DNA from: an uncultured delta proteobacterium
GTDB taxonomy: Bacteria > Desulfobacterota > BSN033 > UBA1163
Reading direction: 5' to 3'
Length of the DNA: 64,000 nucleotides
NCBI GenBank assembly: GCA_963731045.1
Contig: CAVSVC010000022.1
Coordinates: 2,113-66,112, forward strand
Shown: positions 23,163-52,765 of the stretch, piece by piece
How the letters are laid out: each line of letters begins with the position of its first letter
How positions within the stretch are numbered: position 1 is the first letter of the stretch
Notes under the pieces: generated by a model
Told to the model about the DNA's origin: nothing
Databases searched by the model: none
Seen by the model: the letters and a program-made list of their open reading frames with translations, nothing else
Translations under genes and position numbers: made by a program

Positions 23163-24161
23163 TCAGGCATCCTTGATCTCTAACGCCTTATGGGAAGCAA
23201 ATACGAACCGGTCCAGGCCGATCCATTTGAAGAACCTCGCAACCGGGCCGATGGTCACCAAGCCTCCCGGGGAGAAGATTCCCACCGCTGCCAGAATAAG
23301 TCCAAGGAACGTAAGGTGCAAGGCTTTCACCCAGACCGGAAGCCACCCTGCCGTCCAGAGAATCTCCTCGATCAGCATCATGAAGATTGCACCCACAATA
23401 GGACCCAGAAAGGTCCCTGTTCCCCCCAGCATGACCATCGTGACTGGAAGCAGCGCCTTGTCCGTGCCAAAAACAACTTCCGGATCGATGAAACCTGCGT
23501 ACCAGGCATAGACACCTCCAAGAAGTGCAGGGAACAGGGAACTGAGCACATATGCGCTCATCTTATATCGGGTGACATGAATCCCAAAAGCAGTTGCCAC
23601 TTCTTCATCTTCCCGGATACTGAAGAGGGCAAGACCGAATTTTGACCTGGGGATCCAATAACACACCAAAACGGTGAGCAGTGCGACAGCAAGGAAGATG
23701 TAGTAGGTTTCAAAAGCGCGGTAGCCGGGTTTCAGGGAAATTCCCTGTGTCCCGCCCGTAAAATCCCTGAGACTCCCCGCCACCAACTCGAATAATTTAA
23801 TCAGTCCAAAATTGGCCAGAGCAAAATAGCCCCCCTTAAGCCGTAGGAAAGGATAGCTAATGAGCGAGGAAAAAATCAACGTAATCAGGATGCCGGCGGC
23901 CATGCAGAAGATGAAAGGAACTCCTCTGCTGTAGAGAATCGAAAACCCATAAGCGCTGATTCCGAAAAAAACATAATGCCCTAAGTTGACGTAGCCGAGA
24001 TAGCCCGCTGTAATGTTGAAGCTCGCACCGATCCCGACATACATAAAGAAAAGGAGAAAGAAGACGACCCAATAGGGATCGATAAACCGGGGCATCACCG
24101 CCAAGAAAACAAGAAAAATGATTAAGATCCCCTCCCAGGGGTTCAGGCGTTTCTTAGACAT
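23163..24161 (-). CDS. livM: Branched-chain-amino-acid-type ABC transporter permease (LivM family)
   Basis: Intact 332-aa polytopic ORF with LivM-type blocks (NITAGYLGYVNLGHYVFFGISAY, LFSIREDEEVA). It overlaps the upstream livH end by 8 nt. Confidence 0.9.
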   Translation of the reverse strand: MSKKRLNPWEGILIIFLVFLAVMPRFIDPYWVVFFLLFFMYVGIGASFNITAGYLGYVNLGHYVFFGISAYGFSILYSRGVPFIFCMAAGILITLIFSSLISYPFLRLKGGYFALANFGLIKLFELVAGSLRDFTGGTQGISLKPGYRAFETYYIFLAVALLTVLVCYWIPRSKFGLALFSIREDEEVATAFGIHVTRYKMSAYVLSSLFPALLGGVYAWYAGFIDPEVVFGTDKALLPVTMVMLGGTGTFLGPIVGAIFMMLIEEILWTAGWLPVWVKALHLTFLGLILAAVGIFSPGGLVTIGPVARFFKWIGLDRFVFASHKALEIKDA

Positions 24162-25029
24162 GCTTAAATAATCCTTGCGGTTTCAGGAGCAGGACCAGCA
24201 CAAGGGTGCAGAAGGCCACGGCGAGGGACCAGTGTGCCCCCAGGAAAAAACCTGCAAATGTTTCTGCGACTCCGAGGATGAGTCCGCCCACAAGGGAACC
24301 GATCAGACTCCCGGACCCTCCGAGCATGACGATAGCGATATAACGGATCGTCAATGGCAGGCCGATGAAAGGGCCGATGGTAAAGAGCAGGACGTAAAAA
24401 AGGCCGGCGGTTCCGGCCAGTCCGATCGCAATCCCAAAAACCAACGTGACAATTCGGGGAACATTAATTCCGACCACCATGGCCCCTTCTCGGTTCTGAA
24501 GAATGGCCCGAATTGCTTTTCCGGCAAAAGATTTCTTCAGGTAGAAATGAAGGAAGATCGTGAGGGCGATGATGAGCACCAGAATGGAGAGTCGAAGGGA
24601 TGACACAACCACACCGCCCACATTGAAGGCAGGCATGGAATAGGAGACTCCTTTCACCGTCGGCCCCCAGATAAAGGACGTCGTATCTTCAATCGCTGTT
24701 GCGATGCCTACGGTGACGACAATCGATGAGAAGAGGAGTTGTCTCGGAGGACGATTGAGGATCGGCTTTATGAAGGCCTTCTGGTAAACCGCCCCGATCA
24801 GGATGAAAAGAGGGATGACCATGATGAGAATCAGGAAGGGGTTCAACCCGGTCACGGCAAAAAGGATATAGGTGACCAGTCCCCCCAGCATGAGAAACTC
24901 CCCGTGCGTAATGTTGAGGACGTCAGCGATACAGAAGATCAGGGAGAGCCCGAAGGCGGCAAGGGCATAGGTGCCGCCTTGGAGCACTCCCGCCAAAACC
25001 AATTGGATAAGAACCGTCGGCGTCAGCAT
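24154..25029 (-). CDS. livH: Branched-chain-amino-acid-type ABC transporter permease (LivH family)
   Basis: Intact 291-aa ORF with LQGGTYALAAFGLSLIF..NITHGEFLMLG and RAILQNREGA. Confidence 0.9.
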   Translation of the reverse strand: MLTPTVLIQLVLAGVLQGGTYALAAFGLSLIFCIADVLNITHGEFLMLGGLVTYILFAVTGLNPFLILIMVIPLFILIGAVYQKAFIKPILNRPPRQLLFSSIVVTVGIATAIEDTTSFIWGPTVKGVSYSMPAFNVGGVVVSSLRLSILVLIIALTIFLHFYLKKSFAGKAIRAILQNREGAMVVGINVPRIVTLVFGIAIGLAGTAGLFYVLLFTIGPFIGLPLTIRYIAIVMLGGSGSLIGSLVGGLILGVAETFAGFFLGAHWSLAVAFCTLVLVLLLKPQGLFKHV

Positions 25030-25182
25030 CCGTATTCCTTGATCCGTGAGAGCGTCAAGCGTAAGGCGCGAGGGGTTTACCCCTTACGCCTCACGACTGA
25101 CGCCTTACGGACGAGGGTTTTGATATTCGAATTTCGAAATGTTCCCAACCTCTAAATCATGTGTCGTGATTTCGACACAGCG

Positions 25183-26376
25183 TTAGGGTTGTGGATTCGG
25201 GTAAACATGCTTATGGCTTGCAAACTTCTTTGGAGAAATCAGGTAATACTTCCCATCAATATACTGCGCTGCAAACTGTTTAAAGGATCCATGCCCCAGG
25301 GTCTGGTCGATAACCATGGGCCCCAGGATCGATTCAAAATTGACCGCCCAGGCTGATTTCAGGAGATCTTCGGGTTTCAAAGAGTCGGCTTTTTCAATCG
25401 CCACCTCTGCAAGTTCCAAGGCCACATAATGGATGCCAACATCCAGGTATTGCTCCGTGTCGATATTGGTCTCCTTCAGGATCTCCTGGAACTTCTTCAG
25501 GTTGCCGTAAGGGAGTCCTGGCAGCCAGTGATGTGCGCCCGTCACGTAATTGGCGTCCTTTCCCAGAGCACTGGAGAAAGAAATGTCGAAATGGGTAAAG
25601 TGCCACTCCCGAGGTTTGAGTCCAAATTCTTTGGCCTGTTTTTTGAAAGTGACGCCAAAGGGAGTGAAGGAAGAGACGTAAATAATATCCGGGTCGGCAG
25701 CCTTCAACTTCAAAAGAATGGAGGTGAAGTCCGTCGTGGCTGCCGGAGCAATCTCTTTAAACGCGGTCTTGTAGCCGCGTTTTTCAGCGTTTGGGATTGC
25801 TCCCTCGTAAACCTCTCGGGTATGCGGGGTATCTTCGGCCACATAGCCGATCGTCTTCACTTGTTTCTCCTCATCGAGAAGATCGAAGTAATTGTCTTCC
25901 CAATGGGTGGAAAGCTGCTGTACCCCGACAAACCACTTAAACCCTCGATTGAAGACCGCCGGCGTATTGGCAGTGGCCAACACCATGGGAACATGATACT
26001 TCTCAGGGACAGAGGTCACCGGAAATGTAATCGGTGTTGACTTGGGACCGATCAGGATGTCGCACTTATCGACCGTCACCAGTCGCTCATAGAACTTCAC
26101 CGCCGTTGCCTGATCGCTCTTGTCGTCATAGACGATGGTTCTAACAGGAAGCTTCTTGTTGTAGGCCTTCACATAAAGCCCGCCTTGCTTCTTGTTCACA
26201 TAATTCTCCCAGGCCTTAATCATACGGTCGAAAGGACCAACATCCGCGGCAAATTTTCCAGTGAGGCAGAGTGTCATTCCGACGACGATCTCTTTTTTCT
26301 CCTGAGCCACTCCAGCCTGAATGGTCCCCAGGAAGACGGCCATGGCCAAAATAGCAACCCATCCGATCCTCTTCAT
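25183..26376 (-). CDS. Liv-type (type I periplasmic binding fold) ABC substrate-binding protein
   Basis: AAAGGAGGAG precedes ATG 26376. The signal is MKRIGWVAILAMAVFLGTIQAGVA. The mature part reads EKKEIVVGMTLCLTGKFA... It is a close paralog of 58597..59784. Confidence 0.9.
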   Translation of the reverse strand: MKRIGWVAILAMAVFLGTIQAGVAQEKKEIVVGMTLCLTGKFAADVGPFDRMIKAWENYVNKKQGGLYVKAYNKKLPVRTIVYDDKSDQATAVKFYERLVTVDKCDILIGPKSTPITFPVTSVPEKYHVPMVLATANTPAVFNRGFKWFVGVQQLSTHWEDNYFDLLDEEKQVKTIGYVAEDTPHTREVYEGAIPNAEKRGYKTAFKEIAPAATTDFTSILLKLKAADPDIIYVSSFTPFGVTFKKQAKEFGLKPREWHFTHFDISFSSALGKDANYVTGAHHWLPGLPYGNLKKFQEILKETNIDTEQYLDVGIHYVALELAEVAIEKADSLKPEDLLKSAWAVNFESILGPMVIDQTLGHGSFKQFAAQYIDGKYYLISPKKFASHKHVYPNPQP

Positions 26377-26401
26377 AGATCTCCTCCTTTTCTGATGTGG
26401 G

Positions 26402-27862
26402 TTAGAGCCCGAGGTAAGCCTTCCGGATGCTCTCATCCTTCAGGAGTTCCGCGCTCTTGCCCTCTCTGACAACCCGGCCATTTTCCAGTACGTAGGTACG
26501 GTCCGAGATCTCCATGGCAAGCCGGGCATTCTGCTCCACCAGGAAGACCGTCACTTCCTGCCGATTGATCTTCTGTATCGTACGGAAGAGTTCCGCCACA
26601 ACAAGGGGTGCGAGCCCCATGGAGGGCTCGTCGATCAGCACGAGTTTCGGAATGGACATCAAGCCCCTTCCCACCGTGACCATCTGTTGTTCTCCGCCGC
26701 TCAGCGTTCCCGCGATCTGCAGTTTTCTTTCTCTAAGCCGGGGAAAAAGCTCGAAAACCCACTCGAGCGTTTCCACAATCTTCTGCCTTGCCCTGGGAGC
26801 ATAGGCCCCGAGTTCCAGGTTCTCAAGAACGGTCATCCCGGGAAAAAGCTTCCTCCCCTCCGGAATGAGGGTGACCCCCTTTTCGATGATCCTGTGTGGC
26901 GGCAGCCGATGAATCTGTTCGTTCAGAAACTGAATGGCGCCCGACGTGGGATGAAGCATTCCGGCGATCGTATTGATCATCGTCGTCTTGCCCGACCCGT
27001 TTGATCCGACCATGGTCACCATCTCTTTCGAAGAGATGGCAAGAGAGGTTTCCCAGAGGACCTGAATATCCCCATAATGGGTTGAAATCTTATCCACCTG
27101 GAGCATCATCTCAAGCGACCTGTTTCCCCCCTGGGCTCCCCCTTCGGCTCCGAGGTATGCCTCAATCACATCCTTGTTCTTGGAAACTTCTTCAGGTTTC
27201 CCCTGGGCAATCAGTTCACCGAAGTTGAGCACCAGGATCCGGTCTGAAAGGCCCATGACCGCTTTCATGATGTGCTCAATCATAAACACGGTGATTCCCC
27301 TCTTCTGAATCCTTCGAACCAGACTCATCATCGCTTCTGTTTCTGTCGGGTTAAGTCCGGATATCGCCTCATCGAGCAGAAGCACTTTGGGGCGGGTCGC
27401 CAATGCCCTGGCGATCTCCAGTTGTTTCCTCCCCACCAGAGTGAGGTTCTTAGCGGGAATATTCGCCTTCGGGGAGAGGCCCGTCAATTCCAGCAGATCA
27501 AGGCCTCTTTTTTCAATTTCACGGGCCGTTTCCGCTTTCGGCTTCCCAAAGTGGAGCCCGACAAGGATATTTTCATAGACGGTGAGACTCGAAAAAGGCC
27601 GGACGAGTTGGTAGGTCCTTGAGATCCCTTTATGGCAGATATCCCGGGCGCCTTGAGATGCAATTTCTTCTCCGTTGAATCGGATAGAACCCGATGAGGG
27701 AGGAAATGTTCCCGCGATAATGTTGAAGAGAGTTGTTTTGCCGGCCCCATTGGGTCCGATGAGGCCGAGGATCTCCCCGGACTCCATGGTGAACGAGATG
27801 TCATAAAGCGCCCTGAGGCCGCCGAAGTATCTCGTAACCCCTGTTACTTCAATAATGCTCAT
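26402..27862 (-). CDS. Fused LivG-LivF ABC ATPase (two nucleotide-binding domains in one 486-aa ORF)
   Basis: Domain 1 has GPNGAGKTT and ..LLLDEAISGL and ends EAYLGAEGGAQGGNRSLEM. Domain 2 starts MLQVDKISTHYG and has GSNGSGKTT, LSGGEQQM and LIDEPS. There is no stop or frame change at the junction (about 27100-27130). Confidence 0.85.
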   Translation of the reverse strand: MSIIEVTGVTRYFGGLRALYDISFTMESGEILGLIGPNGAGKTTLFNIIAGTFPPSSGSIRFNGEEIASQGARDICHKGISRTYQLVRPFSSLTVYENILVGLHFGKPKAETAREIEKRGLDLLELTGLSPKANIPAKNLTLVGRKQLEIARALATRPKVLLLDEAISGLNPTETEAMMSLVRRIQKRGITVFMIEHIMKAVMGLSDRILVLNFGELIAQGKPEEVSKNKDVIEAYLGAEGGAQGGNRSLEMMLQVDKISTHYGDIQVLWETSLAISSKEMVTMVGSNGSGKTTMINTIAGMLHPTSGAIQFLNEQIHRLPPHRIIEKGVTLIPEGRKLFPGMTVLENLELGAYAPRARQKIVETLEWVFELFPRLRERKLQIAGTLSGGEQQMVTVGRGLMSIPKLVLIDEPSMGLAPLVVAELFRTIQKINRQEVTVFLVEQNARLAMEISDRTYVLENGRVVREGKSAELLKDESIRKAYLGL

Positions 27863-27956
27863 TCAACCTTATTCCGAGAAGAAAGATTATCGTGCTCACA
27901 GAGCTCTTTAATAACCGTGAAACTTTTAACAAATGCGAGTGGCAATGTCAAGGAAA

Positions 27957-28919
27957 TCAGCGGGTGACCGAAACCCCCGTCAGGGAACAGTATGTCCGGC
28001 TCCGGCGCAGGACGCCGACGATCCCCTGCGGTGACAGCAGCATGATTCCCACGAGAATGGCGCCCTGGATCAGGAAACTGTAACCGGCGTACTTTGCGAG
28101 CAGGAAATAGAGGACGACGACAACCACCGTTCCAAAGATCGGGCCCTCCTCGGTGCGCGTCCCCCCGATGACGGCGGCCAGAAGCAATGTCATGGTCCAC
28201 GTGACATTGAAGGTGGCCGAAGGTTCGATGTATCCCTGGTAGAGGTAGAAGACCGCCCCTGCCAGTCCTGTAATCACCGCAGAGATGACGAAGGTGTACA
28301 GCTTCAACTTGAAGACGTTGATCCCGCAACCGGCCGCCGCTCTCTCATTGTCTCGGATGGCCGCGAGACCCAGCCCCAGATTCGATCTGAGAACAAAACG
28401 GACCAGGAAGACGGACCCGATACCGACGATCAAGGCAAACCAGTAGATATGGGCCATGGAGACCTCCGCGATCCCCTTGATCATATACCCCGCCCCGCCG
28501 CCGTCCATCTCCCCTCCCACAGGCTTCCAGAGATAGAAGAGGATCCTCAGGGCCTCGGGAACGACGAGCGTTCCGATGGCAAAATAGATCCCGCTGAGTC
28601 TGAACACGGGGAAAGAGATCACGAGAGCAAAGAGACCGGCCACGACCGCCCCCGCAAGAAGTCCGATCCACCAGGGGATTCCAACCCATGTGGTAATCGC
28701 CAGGGTATACCCTGCGAGCCCGAGGAAGGCAGGTTGACAGAGCGAGGTCAGCCCTGAATAGCCTGCGAGCAGGTTCCACATATTTGCCATGGCCAGATAG
28801 ATCGAAAAGAGGAAGACGTAGAGCAACCAGCTGCGCGGAGCCCCGATCAATGGAAACAGGACAAGGGCGATGCCGATCACGATCAAAGGCATGAATTTCG
28901 TCTTGAATCGAAATCTCAT
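27957..28919 (-). CDS. livM: ABC transporter permease (LivM family), second system
   Basis: Intact 320-aa polytopic ORF with NLLAGYSGLTSLCQPAFLGLAGY and LAAIRDNERAA. Confidence 0.9.
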   Translation of the reverse strand: MRFRFKTKFMPLIVIGIALVLFPLIGAPRSWLLYVFLFSIYLAMANMWNLLAGYSGLTSLCQPAFLGLAGYTLAITTWVGIPWWIGLLAGAVVAGLFALVISFPVFRLSGIYFAIGTLVVPEALRILFYLWKPVGGEMDGGGAGYMIKGIAEVSMAHIYWFALIVGIGSVFLVRFVLRSNLGLGLAAIRDNERAAAGCGINVFKLKLYTFVISAVITGLAGAVFYLYQGYIEPSATFNVTWTMTLLLAAVIGGTRTEEGPIFGTVVVVVLYFLLAKYAGYSFLIQGAILVGIMLLSPQGIVGVLRRSRTYCSLTGVSVTR

Positions 28920-28926
28920 TGCTCTC

Positions 28927-29790
28927 CTAACGGCCGAAGAGACCTTGCGGCCTGATCGCCAGTATCACCAGGACGATCATATACACGATCAGCATCTGCG
29001 TGGCCGAACCAAAGAAGTATCCTCCCATGGTTTGAACGACCCCCAGTGTCACCCCGCCGATAAAGGTTCCGAGCATACTGCCCAGACCTCCGATGATCAC
29101 GGTTCCAAAGGCGATCGTGAGCAGAGACGTCCCGGACGTGGGGGTAAAGGGAAACGTCATTCCCAGAAAAACCCCCGCGACGGCAGCGGAAACCATCGCA
29201 ATGGCGAAGGCATAGCCATAGATGCGGTTTGTGTTGATTCCCATCAGAAGGGCGGCCCTCCGGTCCTGAGAGGCAGCCATGATGGCTTTTCCAAGATAGG
29301 TCCGGCTGAGAAACTCGCGGAGAAGGATCATGACGACGATGCCGGCAATGAAGTCCAGCAGATAAGAGATCGGAAACTGAAGGCTTCCCAGGCTGAAACT
29401 GGTCAGGGAATAGGATGTGTTTAAACCTCTCGACAGCGGGGTCCACAGGATCTGGTTGGTGTTCTGAATGATCAGGGAAATGCCGAAGGCGATGATCAGC
29501 GGCGCCTCTGCGGAAATGGCAAAGGCACGGCCCATCAGGTACTTCTGGATGATAAACCCCAGGGCAAACATTCCGGGGATGCAGATGACCAGACTGACGA
29601 TGGGATCGAGCCCCGGGTAGGACATCAGGCCGAACGCGGCGTAACTCCCCAGGATCACCAGGTCGCCGTGGGCAAGATTGATCAATCTCATGACCCCGAA
29701 AACAAGGGAGAGACCCATGGCAATGAGCGCGTACAGGCCGCCCAGAAGAATCCCCATGATCAATGGAGTGAGGATGTCGCCTGAACCCAT
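28927..29790 (-). CDS. livH: ABC transporter permease (LivH family), second system
   Basis: Intact 287-aa ORF with LLGGLYALIAMGLSLVFGVMRLINLAHGD and MAASQDRRAA. Confidence 0.9.
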   Translation of the reverse strand: MGSGDILTPLIMGILLGGLYALIAMGLSLVFGVMRLINLAHGDLVILGSYAAFGLMSYPGLDPIVSLVICIPGMFALGFIIQKYLMGRAFAISAEAPLIIAFGISLIIQNTNQILWTPLSRGLNTSYSLTSFSLGSLQFPISYLLDFIAGIVVMILLREFLSRTYLGKAIMAASQDRRAALLMGINTNRIYGYAFAIAMVSAAVAGVFLGMTFPFTPTSGTSLLTIAFGTVIIGGLGSMLGTFIGGVTLGVVQTMGGYFFGSATQMLIVYMIVLVILAIRPQGLFGR

Positions 29791-29842
29791 TTACGCCTTT
29801 CCAGGATGACGGATTAGCATTTTGTTAATTTAATGATTGTTT

Positions 29843-29990
29843 GCAGGCTGCTCAAAAATGCCCAGATGCAAGGCGCCCGAAATCCTGAGGAGTGAGACAC
29901 CTTAAGGTACCTCACGGTACGGTACCTTAAGGTACCGCAGCGACGAAGGATGAGGGCAACGATGCAGATGGACGTTTTTCAGCAGCCTGC
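29843..29990 (+). repeat. About 148-bp nested-palindromic intergenic repeat, copy A (MITE/REP-like)
   Basis: Imperfect terminal inverted repeats: gcaggctgctcaaaaatgcccagatgca ... tgcagatggacgtttttcagcagcctgc. The GGTACCTTAAGGTACC core is itself a palindrome. Copies B (53510-53656, inverted) and C (58062-58209) are near-identical. This copy abuts the livF stop codon. Confidence 0.85.
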
Positions 29991-30709
29991 TACACGCCGA
30001 AGTAGGCCTTTCTCACCTGATCTTCCTCCCGGAGGTCCGAGGAGACGCCGCTCAGAACAACACGCCCGGTTTCAAGGATGTAGGCCCTATCGGCCTCCTG
30101 AAGGGTTCTCCGAACGTTCTGCTCTACAAAGAGGATCGTAATCCCTCTCTCCCGGATTTCCTTCAGCGCCCGAAACAGCTCGTTAATCACGATCGGAGCC
30201 AGGCCGAGAGACATCTCGTCAATGAGCATCATCTTCGGATCGGCCATCAGTCCTCTGCCGATCACGAGCATCTGCTGTTCTCCTCCGCTGAGCGTCTTTG
30301 CGGTCTGTTTCCGCCTCTCTTTCAGGAGCGGGAAGTGTTCGTAGACCTTCTCCAGGTTCTCTTCCTTCTTGCTTCGTGCCTTCCGGTTGTAGGACCCGAT
30401 GATGAGATTGTCCAAAACCGTTACATCCGGGAAGATCCGCCTTCCCTCCGGAATCTGCGTGATCCCGTTTTCCACAATCTCGTAGGGGTCCATCCGGGTA
30501 ATCTCCCGCCCGTCGAATTCAATGGTTCCTTTAGCAGGGTGGAGTAACCCCGAGATCGTATCGAGAAGGGTTGATTTTCCTGAGGTGTTGGCCCCGATCA
30601 GTGCCAGCATCTCCCCTTCCATTACTCGGAGCGATACATCCCAGAGTGCCTGAAAGGTGCCGTGGAAGACATCGATGTGATTCACAAGGAGAATGGGTTG
30701 CTGCGACAT
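29990..30709 (-). CDS. livF: ABC transporter ATPase (LivF family)
   Basis: Intact 239-aa ORF with GANTSGKST, LSGGEQQML and MLIDEMS. Confidence 0.9.
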   Translation of the reverse strand: MSQQPILLVNHIDVFHGTFQALWDVSLRVMEGEMLALIGANTSGKSTLLDTISGLLHPAKGTIEFDGREITRMDPYEIVENGITQIPEGRRIFPDVTVLDNLIIGSYNRKARSKKEENLEKVYEHFPLLKERRKQTAKTLSGGEQQMLVIGRGLMADPKMMLIDEMSLGLAPIVINELFRALKEIRERGITILFVEQNVRRTLQEADRAYILETGRVVLSGVSSDLREEDQVRKAYFGV

Positions 30710-30722
30710 TTTTCCCTATCAC

Positions 30723-31469
30723 TCAGGCCCCGAAGTAGGCATCGATCACCCTGCTGTCATTCATGATGGCCGTCGGCTCGCCTTCGGCGATCTTCATCCC
30801 TTTGTCGATGACGACGATCCGATCGACGGCGTTGACCATCACTTTCATGACGTGTTCGACAAGGATCATGGTGATCCCCATCTTTCTAATCTCTTTGATC
30901 GTCGCAAGGATTCTGGGGATCTCGATCTCAGTAGACCCTGCCGCCACTTCGTCGAGCAGCAGCAACTCGGGTTTTCGTGCAAGGGCTCTTGCGAGTTCGA
31001 GTTTCTTCAGGGATAAGATCGGAAGATTCCCGGCAAGGGTATCCTTCTTCTCGGAGAGATTGACCAGGTCAAAGATCTTTTCGTCTTCCAGGTCAGCCGC
31101 AGTCCTCCTCAATTGTCTCCCGAATACTGCGGAAACCAGCAGATTCTCGCGTACGGAGAGCGTCACAAAGGGCTGCGGGATCTGATAGGTCCTGGCAATG
31201 CCGAGATGGCAGACTTCGTGGACTGCACAGCGTGTGATATTACGTCCTTGAAACGTAACGGTCCCGTTGTCCGGAGTGTACTCACCGGCGATAATGTTGA
31301 GCAGAGTCGTCTTCCCCGCGCCGTTGGGTCCCATCAACCCGATGACTTCGCCGGGATAAACATCAAAACCGACGTTTTTCAACGCCACCAGGCCCCCGAA
31401 GCGTTTCGTAATACCCTTCACGCTCAGAATCGGCTCGCCCATCTTCTCCTTTGAACGTTCAGCACTCAT
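30723..31469 (-). CDS. livG: ABC transporter ATPase (LivG family)
   Basis: Intact 248-aa ORF with GPNGAGKTT, LKKLELARALA and LLLDEVAAG. An alternative start is Met10 at 31442. Confidence 0.9.
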   Translation of the reverse strand: MSAERSKEKMGEPILSVKGITKRFGGLVALKNVGFDVYPGEVIGLMGPNGAGKTTLLNIIAGEYTPDNGTVTFQGRNITRCAVHEVCHLGIARTYQIPQPFVTLSVRENLLVSAVFGRQLRRTAADLEDEKIFDLVNLSEKKDTLAGNLPILSLKKLELARALARKPELLLLDEVAAGSTEIEIPRILATIKEIRKMGITMILVEHVMKVMVNAVDRIVVIDKGMKIAEGEPTAIMNDSRVIDAYFGA

Positions 31470-31513
31470 GAAGTTATGAAGTTGGGAGTTGGAGTTAGGA
31501 GGTTAGGAAGTTA
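31470..31513. repeat. Heptamer-periodic degenerate tandem repeat (gaagtta tgaagtt gggagtt ggagtta ggaggtta ggaagtta)
   Basis: Read directly from the sequence. It fills the grdA-livG spacer. Purine-rich 7-periodicity continues to about 31600 across the grdA 3' end. Confidence 0.55.
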
Positions 31514-31584
31514 AGCTTCAATAAGTTCGAATGCATCTCATCTCTCATCCTCTGAGCCTTCATCTTCTAAGCTTCTCATCTTCG

Positions 31585-32073
31585 TTATCTTCTTTTCCTT
31601 GAGCCTTCAGCCTTCGCTTTCCTTGCCCGCACCCTGGTAAGCGTCTCAGAGATCTTATCCACATCCAGGGCGATCTCCATAAGCTTCAGATGCTCCTCAT
31701 AGCATGCAGGGTCGATCTGGGCCTTCATCTCAGGCTCGATGATGTGATATACCGGGAGCCCCAGTGCGACTCCGGCCAGCGGTCCTGCCCAGGTCGGGTC
31801 TCCATTCGTTACCGTCTCAGCATAGAGCTCGGCGCTATCGGCATCCGGAGCCCCGAGGACAACGATGAGATCTTCCTTGCCGTACTGCTCTGCGACCTTC
31901 TTGATGCTTTCCTGACCTTCCAGGTCAAGGGCGCCTGCCGCAGTTCAGACAAAACACTGTGTCTGTACCAGCAGAGGCTCGGCTCCCGCACTCTGAACAC
32001 AGGCCGCGATCGCCGGTCCCTGAATCCCATCCCGTTCCCCCAGGATGATCACTTTCTTCCCTTTCAGTTTCAT
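31585..32073 (-). CDS. grdA: Glycine/sarcosine/betaine reductase complex selenoprotein A (GrdA), with in-frame UGA = Sec43
   Basis: Absent from the ORF track because it is split by TGA at 31945-31947. GGGAGG precedes ATG 32073. My translation is [101 protein letters not shown].., 162 codons ending at TAA 31585-31587. CFVUTAAGA is the GrdA active-site signature. Confidence 0.85.
31911..31929 (-). promoter_or_regulatory. Candidate SECIS hairpin for grdA
   Basis: The mRNA reads C-U-UGACCU-GGA-AGGUCA-G-G, an 8-bp stem including one G.U pair, starting 15 nt 3' of the UGA. Confidence 0.35.
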
Positions 32074-32181
32074 TGCCCATCCTCCCGTCTCAGACCCATT
32101 CCAACGTCCAGTTCCCGGGGACTTAAACGGATTCGATTTCCCTTTAGGTCGTGGGAGCTACTCTGGAATTTGGTGCTTTTC

Positions 32182-32511
32182 TTATTGCCCAACAATTTCT
32201 TTGATCGCTTCTTCAATATCCTTCTTGGTAAGCTGTTCGCCGGACAGACGCTTGACCTCAACCCCATTTCTGTAGAAGAGAAAGGAAGGGAGACCCAGGA
32301 CCCGCAGCTTTGCACAGAGCATGCGGTTCCCCGCAGCGGCATTCAGCTTTGTGACCTTGATTTTACCGGAGTACTCCTGCTCAAGGTGCTCAATGCTCGG
32401 CATCAGGGCCAGGCATGGAGCGCACTGGGGGCCCCAGAAATCTACAAGAACAGGCAGTTCCGATTGGAGAACTTCCGTTTCATAGTTGTCTTTATGAACG
32501 TCCACAGCCAT
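32182..32511 (-). CDS. trx: Thioredoxin with a CAPC redox motif
   Basis: Intact 109-aa ORF with VLVDFWGPQCAPCLALMP...LGLPSFLFYRNG. The ATG overlaps the grdC stop as TAATG. Confidence 0.9.
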   Translation of the reverse strand: MAVDVHKDNYETEVLQSELPVLVDFWGPQCAPCLALMPSIEHLEQEYSGKIKVTKLNAAAGNRMLCAKLRVLGLPSFLFYRNGVEVKRLSGEQLTKKDIEEAIKEIVGQ

Positions 32512-33992
32512 TATTCGTTACCCCCCTCGTTCTTTTCGAGCAAGATCGATATTCCGTCGGAAAGCTGCGTCAACCGTCCGAGAAAGAGGCTCCCCTTGGC
32601 CAGAAGCATCGTATTTCTCAGCTTTCCCGACTTGATATTCCGGATGGCATGACCGAGATACGGTATGGCCGAAGCAATATGCCCCTGGGTTGGAGAAAAA
32701 CCGGGCATCCCGTGGGTCTTCACAAACTGGTCCAGCTCGCTCTTCTGAATCTCATTTCGCAGGACGGCAAAGCTGCCGATCGTCCGGTAATTCGTGCGGG
32801 GAACATTTCCACTCCCCTGCGGCTCCGTCACTTCCGGATTGTGCATCTCTGTCGCATATTTATCGATCTGGGTCAGCTTAAGTCCAAGCCGGTCGAGGGG
32901 CTCGACGACCAGCTTCTCGAGGATCGCCTGCTGAGCGGAGCCTGAGCTGATTTCATGTTTTCCAATAGAATCCAGACGGATGACCGGGCTTCTTCCGTCA
33001 TCCTGAGTCACCCAGACAGCGATTCCCGCCAGAAGATCCTCCAGGACCGGCATATCATGCCGAACGTGCCCCTGGAATTTCATCCCCAACTTCGCCAGGG
33101 ATCCCCCCGCCACCATCACCACGTTGCTGAAAACGCCGGAGGAGACCAATCCCGCCGCCATCATCAGGGCGTGAACAGGCGCGCAGCAGAAGGCCTTGAC
33201 GTCGGAACCCGTCGCCCGGGTGCAACCGCACAGCTGCCCGATTGCCTTGGCCAGGTTTCCTCCTCCGCGGTTATAACGGTCTCCGATGGCTTCCTCTCCA
33301 TACCCGATGAGATAATCGATATCTTTTGCCGAACCGGTCTTTGAAATGAGGTTTCGCAATGCCATCACCCCGGAGGCTCTTGAGGATAGATTTTCGAGCA
33401 TGATGGAGGGAATAAGGTTTTCATCCTCCTCGGCGCCATCCCCCTGCGGTCTCTTCACGCATCCTACGAGGCGGTTCCCCTGGACATAGAGGGGCAGGAC
33501 ATCTCCTTGCTCCAGCTTCTTTTCCAGCCCCTCTTTGGAAACGCCTTTGCCGAGTTTCTGAATATCCTCCTCCACAAAAAGCGGGTGAACCCTGAGCATG
33601 GCCACCACACCGTCCAGAAAACTCTCCTCGAGTGTGATCAGGCCGAACTCATCACAGAGCTTCAACACCCCGTAGAACTCCTCCTCCGGCATGATCTCCC
33701 CGAACTCGCCCCACCGCGAAGCATTCGGAACAGGATTCCGATACCACGGAGAAGGCGTGTTCCACAATTCGTCGGGATCAAGATTTCCAATGAAAACCTG
33801 ATTCGGCGGATAAGGAACGGCCTGCTCGAAAGGTCTTAAATGGTTGAGGATCGGCTGCAGTTGTGATGGATCATGTCTGATCTCCCGAGAGGGCTTTGAC
33901 CCGTACCGGATCAGGCTCGGCACGTGGGCAAGAAAATAAGAAACCCCTGTAATGACCGGGAGCATCCGTTTATCCGACGAACGATGGGACAT
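32511..33992 (-). CDS. grdC: Glycine/sarcosine/betaine reductase component C beta subunit (GrdC)
   Basis: Intact 493-aa ORF with blocks I recognise from clostridial GrdC: VPYPPNQVFIGNL.PDEL, RLVGCVKR, NRGGGNLAKAIG, ATGSDVKAFCCAPVHAL, EMHNPEVTEPQGSGNVPRTNY, AKGSLFLGRLTQLSDGISI. Confidence 0.85.
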   Translation of the reverse strand: MSHRSSDKRMLPVITGVSYFLAHVPSLIRYGSKPSREIRHDPSQLQPILNHLRPFEQAVPYPPNQVFIGNLDPDELWNTPSPWYRNPVPNASRWGEFGEIMPEEEFYGVLKLCDEFGLITLEESFLDGVVAMLRVHPLFVEEDIQKLGKGVSKEGLEKKLEQGDVLPLYVQGNRLVGCVKRPQGDGAEEDENLIPSIMLENLSSRASGVMALRNLISKTGSAKDIDYLIGYGEEAIGDRYNRGGGNLAKAIGQLCGCTRATGSDVKAFCCAPVHALMMAAGLVSSGVFSNVVMVAGGSLAKLGMKFQGHVRHDMPVLEDLLAGIAVWVTQDDGRSPVIRLDSIGKHEISSGSAQQAILEKLVVEPLDRLGLKLTQIDKYATEMHNPEVTEPQGSGNVPRTNYRTIGSFAVLRNEIQKSELDQFVKTHGMPGFSPTQGHIASAIPYLGHAIRNIKSGKLRNTMLLAKGSLFLGRLTQLSDGISILLEKNEGGNE

Positions 33993-34010
33993 AAGACGGC
34001 AATTCCTTTC

Positions 34011-34166
34011 TTCAACGATTATTGAGTCAATGAGTTATTGAGTGATATTAAGTGAATGAAAACCCTTATTGACTCTCATTAACTCGATATGGGAATTCAA
34101 TTACCTCATTAACTCTATTCATCTAGTTCATGGATGTCCTTCTTCTGATCACTGATCACTGGTTAC
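34011..34166. repeat. Intergenic block of heptamer-periodic repeats with dyad symmetry (attgagt caatgag ttattga.. / ..ctcattaactc.. / tctgatc actgatc actggtt actgatc)
   Basis: Read directly from the sequence. It fills most of the 193-bp spacer between the grdB-like gene and grdC. Confidence 0.55.
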
Positions 34167-34185
34167 TGATCACTCGTTTTTGCCT

Positions 34186-35487
34186 TTAGCACAGGATCCT
34201 CTGTTCCTCGATCTCGGTCTGCAGGGCTTTCAACGCCTTTTCAACAATCGAACGGCGCAGCTTCTTCTCTTCCGGTCCGGGAAGATCTGCATTGCCCAGC
34301 GGATTGACGATCTTCTGGCCGGGAAGAATCCTCATGGAACCCACCATCTGGGCAACGGGGGTGATCGCACAGAGGTGAACGGTGGGAATCCCGACCCTCT
34401 CTATCTCCTTTGTGAGCGTTGCACCGCAACGCGTGCTCGTCCCTCAGGTGGAGGTCAGGATCACCCCGGAAACTCCATCCGCCTTCAACTCCCCGGCAAT
34501 CCGTTCTCCCAGTTTTCTCATGACCTCTACGATATTCGCAACACCTGTTGTGCTGTAAAACCTGTCATGGAGCTTCCCGATCAGCCCTTCCCGTTCGAGA
34601 TCCCTGAGAACGTCCACAGGGACCAACCGGTTCGGGTCCTGCCTCACGAAGATCGAGTCATAGCCTTCATGACTGACTTCATAATCTTCGGGATGGAGTC
34701 TTTCGACATCCTTAATATCATATCTCCCAAAACGCGTTGCCGTCCGGATCTCAATCCTGTCCGGATTCCCTTTCGGAACCAGCCCGCCATCCGTCACCAG
34801 CGCAATCTTCGCCTTCCCGATCTCTTTGATGGCCGGGGCCGGCTTCACCCGGTCGTACGTGGGCCGAGGGACTTCGGATTCATACGGCTCTCCCCGCAGT
34901 TTGCACAGCAGCAGGTCCAGAACGCGTTCCGCCCCTGTTCTGTCTGAGATTTCATTCACCAGCAACCCACGGGGGAAGTATCCCTCTTCAGAAGGTTTTC
35001 CTATCCTCTCTTTGGCCACAAGCTTCCGGACAAGGGCCACGATCTTGCCGACAGCCTCAGCCATTCCCCTCGCGGAGTCCACGGTTTGAATAATATAGAC
35101 CTCGTTCCGGTACATGTCGACGCTGGGGTTTTCCTGATACATTCCGGTGACGGCCGGGATTCCCAGTTGCTCCTGGACGATCTTGCAAACGGCGCCGCAG
35201 GCGATGCCGTATCGTCCCGCGTTAAAGGCCGGTCCCGCAATGACGACGTCGGGCCCATAGGAATCAATCATGCTTCTTACTTCCGCCGAGGCCCCTTCAA
35301 TATTTTCCGCAAAATAGTTGTCGCCGCAGATCACGGTAGCCACCACCTGTCCTTCTTTTCCCAAGGCGGCCTGGATAGCTCTGCCCGGCCCCACGGCTCC
35401 TTCGGTCACCCGGGGAGGCAGGTGCGCCTTATCTTCTCCGCCAATCCCGCCGAAAAACTGATTGACATAATGGACCACTCTGATCAT
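34186..35487 (-). CDS. Selenoprotein B family reductase subunit (GrdB/GrdF/GrdH-like), with in-frame UGA = Sec348
   Basis: Track ORF 34444..35487 (MIRVVHYVNQFFGGIGGEDKA...GVILTST) stops at TGA. The same frame continues GTSTRCGATLTKEIERVGIPTVHLC...QRILC to TAA 34186-34188, giving 433 codons. Confidence 0.85.
34416..34432 (-). promoter_or_regulatory. SECIS-like stem-loop for the grdB-like gene
   Basis: The mRNA reads GCGUUGC-GGU-GCAACGC, a perfect 7-bp stem with a GGU loop (17 nt). It begins exactly 11 nt after the UGA at 34446-34444. Confidence 0.55.
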
Positions 35488-35611
35488 TTAAACTCTCCTG
35501 ATCTCCACCCCCATCCCGACTGAGGGCACTAAGCGATGCGTTGCCGATTCACTTCCGATTTTGTTCTAACGCTATGCCCTATGCCCATGTTGCGCTATGC
35601 GGGTTTTCCCA

Positions 35612-36914
35612 TCAATACCGGACTGCCTTCAGTTTTGAACTCCCGAGCTGGCACTGTGAACCCTTAATCCAGCGGATGGACCTCATCATCTCGCCGTCAA
35701 CCGGCGCCCCCTCCTGCGACGGATCGGGTCTTCCGATGATCCTGTCCACAGCAGGCAGCAGCACATCCATGAAAGGGACCCCCATGCTCACGATGGCATC
35801 CACTTCCGGCATGCTGAAGATCGTGGTGGCCCCGAATTTCGCATCGCTGATATCCGCCCCCATGTGGAGCATGGCAATGGCCGTTTTGATCCCGAGCTGT
35901 TCACAACGCTGGGCAGTCCTTGCCATGGTCAGTTCAGGGGCGCCCCCTCCCGTCTTCGTCAGGACCGCACCCTCTGCGCCGACAACGTATCCGGCCAGAT
36001 TTGCCGAGATGTTCGAAACCCGCTCAATGTCCGCCACATTGTTCGGTGCAAGGGTAATGATCACCCCCGCAAAACGAAAGTTCTCTTCCATGTCTTCTGT
36101 AGAGTTCTCTGATGATCGGGTGATTCTGGATCTGATAGGTTTGCACGTTCAACGCCGGCAGGGCGGATGTGATTGCCCCATCCAATACCTCGTTGGGATG
36201 AACCAGGGTGGGAACCATATCCGGGACATTCCTACCGTACAGCACAGGCTCTCCCGGGATGGGTTCGAATTGCAGGGTCTGAATCTGAAAGATGTAGACG
36301 ATCCGGGGAAGCTTTCCGGAAACCTCCACACTCGCCGTCAGCGGAAGAAGCTCAAACACCTCGGTCTCATCAGGCGTAACGCCCTTCCCCGCCTTTGCAA
36401 GATAGGCGGATGCCTTCAGTCCGGCGACCTTCATCGCAGCCATGTATTCCTGCGTGGTCACACCCTGTGAAGGAGTTCCCAGCAGAACAATATTCCGGGT
36501 CTTTCCAAAGGTGCTCACCTCCGCGCCCGGACCGGACATATCGATGATCTCCCCGTTAGGGTATGAACTCGTGCTGCCTTCACGCCTCTCCCGGTAGTCG
36601 CTCAAGACGACGGCAGTTCCCTTTAAGACACACGTGCTTCCTGTGCCCGCGGCTGCCTGCCCTCCTACGGCCCCGGGAAAATCCTGATCTCCGTTGCTTG
36701 TTTTTGCTCTTGGTTCGATCACATCCAGCACCTTCAGGATGCGACATTTCTCCCCGGGCTGAGCCAGATCAATCTCAATGGATTGAAGCCTCTGATCCTC
36801 CAGCAGGAGGTTCTGAAGCTCACTGCGGTTGATAGATAAGACCCCGTCGCTAACGGCAGTTCTGTCTCCGAATCGAATCCCTCGAATCTTCAGAATATTC
36901 AGTTCAAGTCTCAT
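35612..36914 (-). pseudogene. GrdE/GrdG/GrdI-like substrate-binding proprotein of reductase component B, one frameshift
   Basis: Track ORF 36024..36977 (from Met22: MRLELNILKIRGIRFGDRT..IDLAQPGEKCRILKVLDVIEPRAK..HPNEVLDGAITS..HPIIRELYRRHG) joins ORF 35612..36091 (NFRFAGVIITLAPNNVADIERVSN..GAEGAVLTKTGGGAPE..) at about 36080. Confidence 0.8.
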
Positions 36915-37092
36915 CCAATGATGCCTTTCGAAGAGAAGGTTTCGTCCAACGGCCATGGGACGACACCCGTCACTCATTCGGTTAGGTCTTTCGGTTCCAA
37001 AAGCTCACGTTGCCGTTTCCGCCAAACGAAACGGGCTCCGTAGCCATAGCCCTAACCGCCCCCTGGGGGCCGGCGCCCCCGGGGGAGAAGTC

Positions 37093-38436
37093 TCATTCAT
37101 ACGGAATGGGAAAGATGAACTGGGCTTCCGGCTTGACGAAGCTGTGCTTGGAGCTGACGATTCTCAATTCCCACTTGTGCGGTTTGTCCACCTTTCGCCA
37201 CTGACCGAAGCTCAGCGGGATGAGGTTGAACTGGTTCGAGTCAAATTTCACCCGCGCGTTGATCGTCATGAGGTCCGTGCTTTCCAGGGCTTTGTTCACC
37301 CCGTCGGTGCTGAGTGTCCCTGCCCTCTCAATCGCATCCGCCAGCACCTGGATCACATAATACCCCAGACCGATATTGTCGTTCAAGGTCTGGCCGGTAT
37401 CCTTGGTCCACTTCTCCGCCAGGGATTGAGCCGTCGTGCTCCCGACGCCCTTCGTCACAAAAGACGGGTTCCACTTGATCTCCAGACCGATGCCCAGCGG
37501 GAGGTCCCCTCCCCAGGACGCGACATCGATGTAATTTGCAGGGGCTTTCCCGCAGAAGACGGCCTTGGGTTTGAAGCCGAGTGAGCGGGCCTGTTTCCAG
37601 AGGGCCCCGAACTGCGGGGCAGCACAGTTCCCCCAGAGCACCTCCACCCCGTCCGCCTTCCACTTCGAAATGATGGAGGAGAAGTCCGTCGTCTCTCCCG
37701 GGAAGAGGCCCAGTTTCTGTTCGATACCGGAAACAAAGTAGCCTTTCTCTTTCAGGGCCGTCGGGAAGAGCGAATACCAGGCCACACCATCCGGATCATT
37801 CGAAGAAAAGACGCCCACTTTCTTGTTGGTCTTATCGGCGATCTGGTCCAGGGTGGGCAGCCAGGTGTCCAGGATCGTAAACCCCGGCTGTTTATACCGG
37901 AAATCCCCGGGTTGTGCGCCGGCGGCAATCGAAAAACCGAAAGCCCAGGTGTTCTTCCAACCCGGCGATGCATTCTTCCGCATGGCCAGCCAGGGTTCCA
38001 GAACCGCGGCGTGGGCAAGGTGAACCACGTTGTATCTCTGGGCCATGGTGGCTGCCAGGCTGTGCATCGGGGGAGGTTCATTTCCGGTAACCAGGAAATT
38101 GACCTTCTGCCCCACGATCATCTGTTCAGCAAGGGCCCCGGCCTTCTGGGGGTTGCTCTCCGTATTCGCGAAGGTGATCTCGAGGGGGATCTTTCTACCG
38201 AACTCCTTGACCATCACTCCGCCCTGTTTGTTGATATCTTCCACCGCTGTTTTCGCACCCCACGATTGCCCCTGGCCAAACCCTGCAAACATCCCGGTCA
38301 GGGATGCGGGCGAACCGATCAGGATCTTGTCAGGCCCCTTTCCGGTTGACTGCGCCGACACCTGTCCTCCGAGCATCAATCCCAACATGAGGACGACCGA
38401 TAGAAGAACGACCCTTCTTTTCTCCATCTTTTTCAT
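37093..38436 (-). CDS. Liv-type ABC substrate-binding protein (orphan, next to the Grd genes)
   Basis: Intact 447-aa ORF. The signal is MKKMEKRRVVLLSVVLMLGLMLGGQVSA. A type I PBP-like body follows (ILIGSPASLTGMFAGFGQG..AVEDINKQGG). Confidence 0.85.
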   Translation of the reverse strand: MKKMEKRRVVLLSVVLMLGLMLGGQVSAQSTGKGPDKILIGSPASLTGMFAGFGQGQSWGAKTAVEDINKQGGVMVKEFGRKIPLEITFANTESNPQKAGALAEQMIVGQKVNFLVTGNEPPPMHSLAATMAQRYNVVHLAHAAVLEPWLAMRKNASPGWKNTWAFGFSIAAGAQPGDFRYKQPGFTILDTWLPTLDQIADKTNKKVGVFSSNDPDGVAWYSLFPTALKEKGYFVSGIEQKLGLFPGETTDFSSIISKWKADGVEVLWGNCAAPQFGALWKQARSLGFKPKAVFCGKAPANYIDVASWGGDLPLGIGLEIKWNPSFVTKGVGSTTAQSLAEKWTKDTGQTLNDNIGLGYYVIQVLADAIERAGTLSTDGVNKALESTDLMTINARVKFDSNQFNLIPLSFGQWRKVDKPHKWELRIVSSKHSFVKPEAQFIFPIPYE

Positions 38437-38619
38437 ACCTCCTTTTGTAGAATCATCGGGATTGCATTCGTTAGGATCTCACAAGTTATATGGCACCGAT
38501 CGTATCCTCTACTCGTTCGAAAAAGGAAGTTCGTCTACCGTCAGGGTTAAGAGCTTCTGGCTCTACCTCGGGCAGGTGCATCGGCACGTTGTACCCTTCG
38601 GCAGGGGCACCTCTTTCTT

Positions 38620-40450
38620 CTACGGGATTTCGCCTTTATCCGCCTTGTCGGCCTTCAGTTTCTTTCGTAAGGCCGTCGTCGCCTTAGGATCCACTTCAGA
38701 TCCGTTCCCTTCTTGAACACAACACCATATGCCTTGTTCGCCTTTTCAGGGGAGATATACCGATTGAGGACATCCCACCGGACCTTCTGGACATCCCGCT
38801 GCAGGGGATCTCCGACACCGCCGCCTCCGCCCGATTTGCTCCAGAGGATATCGCCGGGTTGAACGTACTGAACGTCATTGCAGCGCAGCTTTTCTTTCTT
38901 TCCTTTCCGGATGATGCCCAGCTGGTGTTTCTTTCCTTCGGTCCCTCCCAGCAATCCCAGGCGCCGAACTTCTCTCCGTCGGAATTGCCCGTCATCACGA
39001 CACAATCATGGGCCTGCCAGACCTTGCGATCGTAGGTATTCAGGATCTCCCAGTGGACACCCGTTGCCGCCCCGCCATTTCCCGTCACCTGCTGAGTCCG
39101 TGATGAACTCGTGACGCAACCATCGATACGGAGTCTCCCATTCCTCCGGTTCTATCGGCGCCCTCAGAGACCCGCCCGCTCCGAGAACCCAGCAGAGTCC
39201 ATCCCAGCCGTCGTAGCCATAGATGGCCCCCATCGAACCATCCCCGTGAAAGGGGGCCGTCCAGTAAAGCTGGGGGGATTTGGTTCGCGGGATCAACGAG
39301 GTCCCGACGCCTCCCGGTGATAATGGGATTCAGGTGCCGCGCCCAGAGGGCGGAAGTATCCTTCGGAACCACCTGGCCCAGGGCCACCTGGACACATTCC
39401 GTAACATGCGTCCCCAGCGTGGGGGCCTGGGCCCCGCTGGTTGCCGGATAAATCGGGTCGAGGACCGATCCCTCCTTGGTTAGAATCGTGAGGCAATTCA
39501 TCAACCCCTGGTTCCGCGGGGTTTGCGGAGGAAGGGACCATGCCACTGCAGTCACGATGGCTGCCCGGGTCTGGCCCTGTGGGCAATTGATAAAATCAAC
39601 CTGGGCGTCGCTCTCCCTAAAGTCCAAGATCAGTTGCCCCTCCTCGGGCTTGACGGTCATGGTCAAGCCTCACCCAGACCGGCTTATCCACGGTTCCGTC
39701 CCAGTCCGCAGCCCGTTCGGCCCGGTAGGTACCCGCCCGCCACGTCGAAATGACCTTCCTCACCGATTCCTCCGTCCGGCTTGACGATCTCGTTGCAGGC
39801 CTCCAGCACCGTCTCCTTTCCGTAACTCTTCACCAGCTCGAGCAACCTCTTCTCGGCCATCTTCATGGAGGCATAGGTCAGCAGGCAGTCGGCACGGACC
39901 ATGGTGGATCCCCTCGAACGTTGCGCAGGATGACTGACAGGACCTTTTCATCAATCTTCCCCCGCTCGATCAGCTTCACGGGCGGAATCATGATCCCCTC
40001 CCCATGGCAGTCATAGGTCCGGGGATAATAGCAGCCCTGGTACGAGCCGCCCGCATCGTACTGATGGGTTCTCATGAAATGATAGAACACCAGTTCCCCT
40101 TCAAAGAAGATGGGCCGAATGAAGGAGAAATCCGGGGCATGGCCGAACTTCACGATAAAGGGGTCGTTGGCCACGATGAAGTCATCCTCGTGGATATTCT
40201 CCCGGCCGATATAATCCAGCATCCCCTTCAGACAGACATCCGACCCGGCGGTGTGGACGGGCATCCAGTTGCCGATGGTAATGGTCCGCTCATTCCGGTC
40301 AAACAGGGCCGTGCCAATGTCCCGGATATGGGCCGTTGCAAAGGAGAAGCACTGACGGAATAGCCTGAACCCGAGTTCCTGATTCTGGGAATTCAAGCGG
40401 CCTTCGATGATCGATAGCGTCAAGGGATCAATGGGTTTGCTCGTGCTCAT
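38620..40450 (-). pseudogene. hyuB: Hydantoinase B / oxoprolinase family subunit (HyuB), at least five frameshifts
   Basis: Starts MSTSKPIDPLTLSIIEGRLNS..RDIGTALFD. Later blocks fall in shifting frames: MVRADCLLTYASMKMAEKRLLEL, TVKPEEGQLILDFRESDAQV, CPQGQTRAAIV, YGYDGWDG, DSAGDGKWRGG.G, SGGGGGVGDPLQRD, ending ..KADKGEIP* at 38620. Confidence 0.8.
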
Positions 40451-44522: not shown

Positions 44523-44552
44523 CTTCCTCTCCTTTCTATCGAAGGTATTCTC

Positions 44553-46340: not shown

Positions 46341-46397
46341 TCACATTCCCCTTTCCATCATTCTGATTGACATCGGCAGTTTACAGACAGACTCGAA

Positions 46398-47902: not shown

Positions 47903-47908
47903 CAGGTT

Positions 47909-49654: not shown

Positions 49655-49791
49655 CTTCTCGCCCTCCTTTTTCTATGAATGGTTCGCGCAGGATATTTGC
49701 GCCCTTAGCAGAGATCAACGGTCGTCGGGCAGGAACCCGAAAACAAGGTAGATTCGTGTTTATATTGTTGCCGGTCGAATTTCTCCGTCCT

Positions 49792-49820: not shown

Positions 49821-49851
49821 CAAAGAACACATTTCAAAAGTTACATTTCGC

Positions 49852-51333: not shown

Positions 51334-51335
51334 CG

Positions 51336-52760: not shown

Positions 52761-52765
52761 GAACC

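Follow-up and report, generated by a model that had tools for sequence, protein, structure and literature searches.

A grdA selenoprotein gene with an in-frame UGA in a reductase gene cluster of an uncultured delta proteobacterium

The 64,000 nucleotides analysed here (contig CAVSVC010000022.1 of assembly GCA_963731045.1, positions 2,113 to 66,112 of the forward strand; the window in what follows) come from an uncultured delta proteobacterium and carry on their minus strand a locus that we identify as grdA. This is the gene for selenoprotein A (GrdA), the small carrier and redox protein of reductase complexes of the glycine/sarcosine/betaine type (Grd family). We put the probability that the locus is a genuine selenoprotein A gene with a recoded UGA at about 0.95. 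The protein belongs to the GrdA family, the UGA and a hairpin 3' of it are conserved in relatives, and the gene is linked to other grd genes. From these observations we infer that selenocysteine (Sec) is inserted at the UGA in this organism. The elements of the gene, including its hairpin of the Sec insertion sequence (SECIS) type, are as follows.

31585..32073, minus strand: grdA coding sequence, 162 codons, with Sec codon 43 (translation, Pfam GRDA, NCBIfam reduct_selen_A, N-terminus aligned with homologues)
31945..31947, minus strand: in-frame UGA read as Sec, within C40-F-V-U43 (TGA in this column in each of the 101 loci that cover it)
31911..31929, minus strand: SECIS-type hairpin with an 8-bp stem, CUUGACCU/AGGUCAGG, and the apical loop GGA (fold, criteria for bacterial SECIS elements, relatives)
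32081..32086, minus strand: Shine-Dalgarno-like GGGAGG (read from the sequence, 7 nt 5' of the grdA ATG)

The grdA gene and its UGA codon

Translation of the minus strand from the ATG at 32073-32071 to the TAA at 31585-31587 crosses a single in-frame TGA, codon 43 at 31945-31947, beyond which the frame stays open and conserved over 119 codons. An earlier note, made from the letters of the window and a list of its open reading frames (ORFs), had proposed exactly this 162-codon protein, and our retranslation agrees with it in start, strand and UGA position; the GGGAGG that it placed before the ATG lies 7 nt upstream, and the active-site signature and the conserved C-terminal stretch that it ascribed to GrdA are both present in the translation. 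It had also claimed that no listed ORF covers the locus in the right frame, only antisense or out-of-frame ones, and the ORF list bears this out. The true frame is represented there only by pieces of 42 amino acids (aa; 31945..32073) and 47 aa (31585..31728), while the longer ORFs listed at the locus run antisense (31690..32652) or in another frame (31809..32030 and 31925..32080). The gene goes unseen because a stop-to-stop ORF finder splits it at the UGA into two pieces shorter than the usual length thresholds.

The assignment to the GrdA family, also put forward in the note, holds from end to end when the conceptual protein is searched with U written as C. Residues 3-149 match positions 1-147 of the 147 in Pfam PF04723 (GRDA) with E = 1.3e-65 and 220.1 bits (cut-off 22), and the NCBIfam equivalog NF040748 (reduct_selen_A) is matched over positions 1-149 of 151 with 223.9 bits (cut-off 130). 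A database search returned 1752 homologues, the closest with 85-87% identity, and the nearest matches in genomes are metagenome-assembled genomes of uncultured Dehalococcoidales and Chloroflexota, at 83% and 78%. An alignment of 27 homologues shows conservation at the N-terminus, in the CFVU motif and through the C-terminal half; the redox motif is C40-F-V-U43 (CxxU). A sequence search of solved structures gave no match better than E = 0.28 and thus no structural homologue.

GrdA was among the earliest selenoproteins to be described; the UGA within its reading frame, its SECIS and the way in which annotation cuts selenoprotein genes short are all well documented. The window grdA is a further member of this well-known family, with a well-known annotation artefact, and the gene itself offers nothing that challenges current knowledge.

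Conservation of the UGA column was assessed in 80 loci from bacterial genomes, taken as one genome per species, together with 23 metagenome loci (up to 95% protein identity). The aligned codon, at the known Sec position of GrdA, is TGA across many phyla, in 80 of 80 genome loci and in each of the 21 metagenome loci spanning it. The UGA/Cys position on which the earlier proposal hung is therefore conserved, with TGA in each of the 101 covering loci and tryptophan (W) in each of 25 full-length database homologues. The uniform TGA agrees with the statement in the literature that no Cys-containing homologues of GrdA are known (PMC1794560).

The 25 database proteins with W, all but two of the 27 aligned, come without exception from contigs no longer than about 4 kb, and the W is the TGA as read under code 4 by gene callers on such short contigs. 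The remaining two are fragments of 96-97 aa that start after the UGA, one of which, P0103, is labelled 'betaine reductase' by its source. Public calls of close GrdA homologues (among P0001-P0120) come in two forms, full-length with W or a post-UGA fragment, and both are annotation artefacts of the recoding.

The hairpin downstream of the UGA

The hairpin CUUGACCU-GGA-AGGUCAGG begins 15 nt past the UGA, which places its loop at a distance of 23 nt. The earlier note had described a stem of 8 bp, extended by C-G and U.G pairs, at this distance, and its position is recovered at 31929..31911; the SECIS character that this implied is likewise upheld by the published model for bacterial elements (bSECIS). 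That consensus, Zhang and Gladyshev's bSECISearch model in the summary given by PMC13188914, has an apical loop of 3-9 nt carried by an upper stem of 4-16 bp, a G at either of the first two positions of the loop, most often with G or U after it, a distance of 16-37 nt from the UGA to the apical loop, and a minimum free energy (MFE) of -7.5 kcal/mol or lower. The grdA hairpin agrees with the model on all four counts (a 3-nt loop on 8 bp; GGA; 23 nt; -10.0 kcal/mol). Folded as 22 nt it has z = -3.1, its energy being matched by one of 200 shuffles, and the 66-nt context folds with -25.5 kcal/mol (z = -2.6).

Comparison with relatives carries most of the weight. Across 44 distinct sequences the stem positions pair in 96% of cells, against 19-57% when the partners are slid along, and the closing pair alternates between U-A, U.G and C-G, with both sides changed in six sequences (compensatory U-A/C-G). 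Loop positions 2 and 3 (G and A) are invariant in 47 of 47 aligned relatives; position 1 is G in most and U in seven. Codon choice was followed in 27 sequences, namely the window and 26 genome relatives with Gly at the hairpin position. Here the stem codons are fixed, as CUU for Leu in 21 of 21, GAC for Asp in 27 of 27 and GGU for Gly in 26 of 27, and GGU makes up only 14% of the Gly codons of the window. In the same 27 sequences a Gly codon that lies outside the stem is free to vary (GGC in 10, GGT in 9, GGA in 8). Judged from these alignments, the hairpin is maintained in relatives through synonymous-codon choice and one compensatory pair.

A lower helix in the MFE fold, pairing ACUGCGGC with GUCGCAG, was set aside, as this pairing is not predicted in most relatives. 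When the GrdA genes of loci L017-L080 are set beside that of the window, two types can be told apart after the Sec codon: ALDLEGQ with the long 8-bp hairpin, as in the window, and AMDLENQ, the Bacillota type, with a different and shorter pairing at the same place. This split parallels that between gene clusters without and with grdD, which is described below.

The gene cluster and competing readings of the locus

On the minus strand, 5' to 3', the order is hydantoinase/caprolactamase-type A and B genes, a Liv-type binding protein, grdE-like, grdB-like, grdC, trxA, grdA and a Liv-type ABC transporter.

38696..42527, minus strand: hydantoinase/caprolactamase-type A and B subunit genes, fragmented (NCBIfam CapA/CapB-like, Pfam Hydantoinase_B)
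37093..38436, minus strand: Liv-type solute-binding protein, directly upstream of grdE-like (NCBIfam; synteny conserved)
35612..36977, minus strand: grdE-like proprotein (protein B alpha/beta) in two frames (Pfam Gly_reductase 1-275 and 270-388 on two ORFs)
34186..35487, minus strand: grdB-like selenoprotein B, 433 codons, with TGA at 34444-34446 as codon 348 (translation; TIGR01918)
34416-34432, minus strand: SECIS-type hairpin of grdB-like, GCGUUGC-GGU-GCAACGC (-10.4 kcal/mol, z = -2.5)
32511..33992, minus strand: grdC, coding for the 493-aa beta subunit of protein C (NCBIfam reduct_C_beta over the full profile, 647.5 bits, cut-off 450)
32182..32511, minus strand: trxA, thioredoxin, 109 aa (Pfam Thioredoxin, 1.4e-21)
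23163..31469, minus strand: Liv-type ABC transporter genes, directly downstream of grdA (Pfam, NCBIfam)

Four metagenome contigs preserve this entire order, with 80-95% protein identity, and in them grdE and the hydantoinase-type B subunit gene (HyuB) are intact; the first transporter genes follow in the same order in L082, L083 and L102. The place of trxA is maintained in relatives; its product scores 119 bits with NCBIfam ThioredTrxAClost, under the cut-off of 140. A scan of 31300-38700 for promoters and terminators found no more sites than in shuffled sequence, and transcript ends were not defined by it.

The grdB-like gene, 2.4 kb upstream of grdA, is a second selenoprotein gene absent from the ORF list. 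Its hairpin starts 11 nt after the UGA and has the loop GGU, and U348 stands in a T-S-T-U-G-T context common to relatives. The presence of a second UGA-containing gene in the cluster gives indirect support for a Sec-decoding trait. With the TIGR01918 subfamily the product scores 563 bits (cut-off 65.45). It falls below the GrdB equivalog TIGR01917 (551.1 bits; cut-off 602.2), GrdF NF040794 (580.1; cut-off 800) and the betaine reductase model GrdH NF040795 (467.9; cut-off 775), and the grdE-like product, measured on the intact L083 orthologue, reaches 263.8 with GrdG NF040793 (cut-off 780). In its substrate region the grdB-like product has SHEGYDS in place of the GrdB motif AHGGxD[QTAP] or the GrdF motif IHGGYDR, and the Sec stands in U-G-T-S-T-R-C, not UxxCxxC; L005 has both SHEGYDS and U-G-T-S-T-R-C. 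Protein B passes only the broad TIGR01918 model, and its scores point to no particular substrate.

In the grdE-like gene, tblastn and a comparison of frames trace the frame break to one extra G in the G5 run at 36064-36068, directly after an F-C-G whose Cys lines up with the one presumed to undergo autocleavage. Its orthologues in L082, L083 and L003 are in a single frame. The break is either an assembly error or the mark of a very recent pseudogene, and it looks like the former.

The 80 genome loci split cleanly into two cluster types. In the Bacillota/Synergistota type grdA is followed by grdC-grdD, a pair found in every such locus with enough flank. The type seen in the window, grdE-grdB-grdC-(trxA)-grdA, occurs in Chloroflexota, Desulfobacterota, Actinomycetota and others. 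A search for grdD in the window, the 80 genome loci and the 23 metagenome loci found it only in clusters of the Bacillota/Synergistota type; in loci of the window type it is absent within 6-10 kb of grdA in every case, in metagenome contigs and throughout the 64 kb. Nothing specific on grdD-less clusters was found in the literature.

Hydantoinase/oxoprolinase/caprolactamase-type A and B genes (38696-42527 in the window, L083:22-3734) lie directly upstream of the grd genes, a position conserved in the four metagenome contigs. HyuB is in three pieces in the window and the A subunit gene (HyuA) is shortened; in L083 the B subunit is intact, with 610 aa. In the Caldilineaceae locus L031 a HyuA homologue adjoins grdC-trxA-grdA. 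The placement of HyuA and HyuB beside the grd genes suggests that the opening of a cyclic amide may feed the reductase. The regions 43506-55768 and 61731-62390 are also rich in genes for cyclic-amide and amide hydrolysis, among them a DapA-like lyase, a dihydroorotate/dihydropyrimidine dehydrogenase-like protein, a dihydroorotase/hydantoinase/allantoinase-like protein, an adenylosuccinate-lyase-like protein, two Amidohydro_2 proteins and an isochorismatase-family hydrolase. A role for these genes together with the grd cluster is possible.

Many ORFs elsewhere in the window match their Pfam or NCBIfam profiles over a part of the length only (128-775, 1187-1801, 7338-7880, 14522-15466, 16722-17381 and 20340-22838); 3HCDH, for example, is matched from position 81, BKACE from 109, DctP over 14-120 of 286 and aconitase over 101-306 of 463. 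Frameshifts and fragmentation throughout the window look like those expected of an error-prone assembly.

Several results weigh against reading the locus as a genuine grdA gene with a recoded UGA. No selA, selB, selD or tRNA-Sec was found in the 64-kb window (ARAGORN gave no tRNA, and the scanned ORFs no Sel protein), so the decoding machinery is assumed rather than seen. No grdD was found in the window by tblastn with a verified GrdD, and no trxB was detected in scans of the same 64 kb. If the frameshift in the grdE-like gene is real, the complex would be without protein B here. For the hairpin, Rfam has no matching model; searches of the window at gathering thresholds and of the locus at E up to 10 returned only chance matches to small nucleolar and long non-coding RNAs. 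Synonymous recodings fold at least as well in 5.5% of cases over 60 nt and in 9.2% over the 27-nt core (p about 0.05-0.09). This single-sequence signal is modest because the peptide L-D-L-E-G-Q already favours pairing, and the main evidence for the SECIS is therefore comparative.

Some of these points could also mean that grdA is intact but a leftover of a reductase system that is decaying or inactive in this genome. The grdE-like gene is broken right after its presumed autocleavage Cys, HyuA and HyuB are fragmented relative to L083, and grdD is missing from the window. We consider such decay unlikely. The genes grdA, trxA, grdC and grdB-like and those for the binding protein and transporter are open and 80-95% identical to their counterparts in relatives with an intact grdE and HyuB; one G too many in a homopolymer, in a window where broken genes are widespread, fits assembly error better than selective decay; and grdD is likewise missing next to grdA in all relatives with this type of cluster, so that this genome is not peculiar in lacking it there.

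It is far less probable that the TGA is a true stop, arising from a nonsense mutation, pseudogene formation or sequencing error, so that only a 42-aa peptide, or nothing, would be made. The several broken genes of the window (grdE-like, HyuB in three pieces, the ORFs with partial Pfam coverage) lend this some plausibility. Yet the TGA falls exactly at the catalytic Sec column, and its presence in every covering homologous locus, from independent assemblies and phyla, excludes a nonsense mutation or sequencing error; moreover, the 119 codons after it are open and conserved, and a conserved SECIS lies 3' of it.

A sense codon at this position (Trp or Gly, codes 4 or 25), which would make the residue something other than Sec, has next to no chance of being correct. 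Database gene callers do place W at the column, but only on those short contigs where code 4 may be picked accidentally, and the site is the known Sec of GrdA. Of 23 other genes in the window with family support, 11 end in TGA, at the point where their profiles end, and none of the 23 has a TGA inside; the only genes with an internal TGA are grdA and grdB-like, both of which stop at TAA. Because TGA still terminates 11 of these 23 genes, we read codon 43 as recoded and not as a sign of an altered genetic code.

The real gene might instead be a listed ORF, either the antisense one of 320 aa (31690..32652) or an out-of-frame one of 73, 51 or 90 aa, which are longer than both grdA fragments and for that reason appear in an ORF list. 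This can be dismissed almost entirely, since these ORFs have on either strand no Pfam match better than E = 0.01 and none at gathering score, and the 320-aa ORF runs antisense to grdA, trxA and the end of grdC, all of which have strong family support.

Proposed function and comparison with known systems

With UGA 43 recoded, a working scheme can be drawn by analogy. The GGA-loop hairpin would recruit SelB-GTP-Sec-tRNA(Sec) to the approaching ribosome, and UGA 43 would be decoded as Sec. For the enzyme we follow the clostridial mechanism (the Andreesen scheme as summarised in PMC10298544 and PMC13188914), in which the U43 selenolate would accept a carboxymethyl group from the substrate held on protein B, which contains a pyruvoyl group and would be formed here by the grdE-like and grdB-like products. 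GrdA would then carry a Se-carboxymethyl selenoether, and this would be turned by protein C (GrdC, usually together with GrdD) into an acetyl thioester and then acetyl phosphate. GrdA would be left as a C40-U43 selenenylsulfide and re-reduced by the thioredoxin encoded immediately upstream; TrxA is thus the probable reductant of oxidised GrdA, and the activity of the complex on a substrate in this organism is what we infer from these parallels.

More tentatively, grdA may serve an uncharacterised Grd-family reductase, an idea that we hold at well below even odds. Protein B is divergent, no grdD is nearby, and the cluster is linked to an ATP-dependent enzyme of the hydantoinase/caprolactamase type, a binding protein and a Liv-type transporter; together these could provide for the selenium-dependent import, opening and reductive cleavage of a cyclic amide or unusual amino acid, with a protein C chemistry that may differ from that of the clostridial enzyme.

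For annotation the consequence is practical: gene calling has to read through the UGA codons of both grdA and grdB-like, or else the cluster seems to lack its central redox carrier. The presence of grdA would mark this uncultured organism as selenium-dependent and equipped for the thioredoxin-coupled reductive cleavage of glycine-type substrates. Any added value possibly lies in the partners (the unassigned protein B, the absence of grdD and the neighbours of lactamase type), as leads on the range of Grd substrates outside clostridia.

Glycine reductases have already been described in Dehalococcoidia/Chloroflexota, where Nobu et al. 2022 (PMC9751293) report the gene clusters from uncultured members of the lineage that holds the nearest genome matches to the window GrdA. 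Protein B of the window has neither of the motifs used in that work, AHGGxD... for GrdB and IHGGYDR for GrdF. Fermenters of N-methylhydantoin and creatinine (Clostridium sp. FS41, Tissierella creatinophila; PMC4417704, PMC5364220) combine a cyclic-amide hydrolase of the hydantoinase A/B family with a Grd reductase, as the window does, and their sarcosine reductase uses substrate-unspecific proteins A and C. Among the specific models, those of sarcosine reductase, GrdF and GrdG, score highest with the B subunits of the window, yet the scores of 580 and 264 stay far under the cut-offs of 800 and 780, and the GrdF motif is lacking. A link between the window cluster and the sarcosine reductase pathway of these fermenters is offered as a hypothesis only.

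The hairpin resembles the bSECIS prototype, that of E. coli fdhF, in being a stem-loop directly 3' of the UGA and within the ORF, and it shares with the bSECIS consensus model the small loop opening with G-G, the 23-nt spacing and an energy of -10 kcal/mol; it has no sequence similarity to the E. coli elements.

Clostridial GrdA, as in Clostridium sticklandii, C. litorale and Peptoclostridium (Eubacterium) acidaminophilum, is like that of the window a protein of about 155-160 aa that matches the full-length profile. In both, the redox motif is CxxU, the Sec comes from an in-frame UGA, and the SECIS lies just downstream in the coding sequence (PMC13188914). Linkage to grdE, grdC, a thioredoxin gene and grdB, itself a selenoprotein gene, is also common to the two; grdD and trxB, which belong to the full set linked to grdA in this family, were not detected in the 64 kb. 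The window GrdA has 53-59% identity to the Bacillota-type sequences recovered, and differs from them after the Sec, where they have TAAGAMDLENQ and it has the longer 8-bp hairpin, and in a basic C-terminal tail about 10 residues longer than in clostridial-type GrdA. The gene orders differ as well, with grdA followed by grdC-grdD in the clostridial type and grdE-grdB-grdC-trxA-grdA without a nearby grdD in the window.

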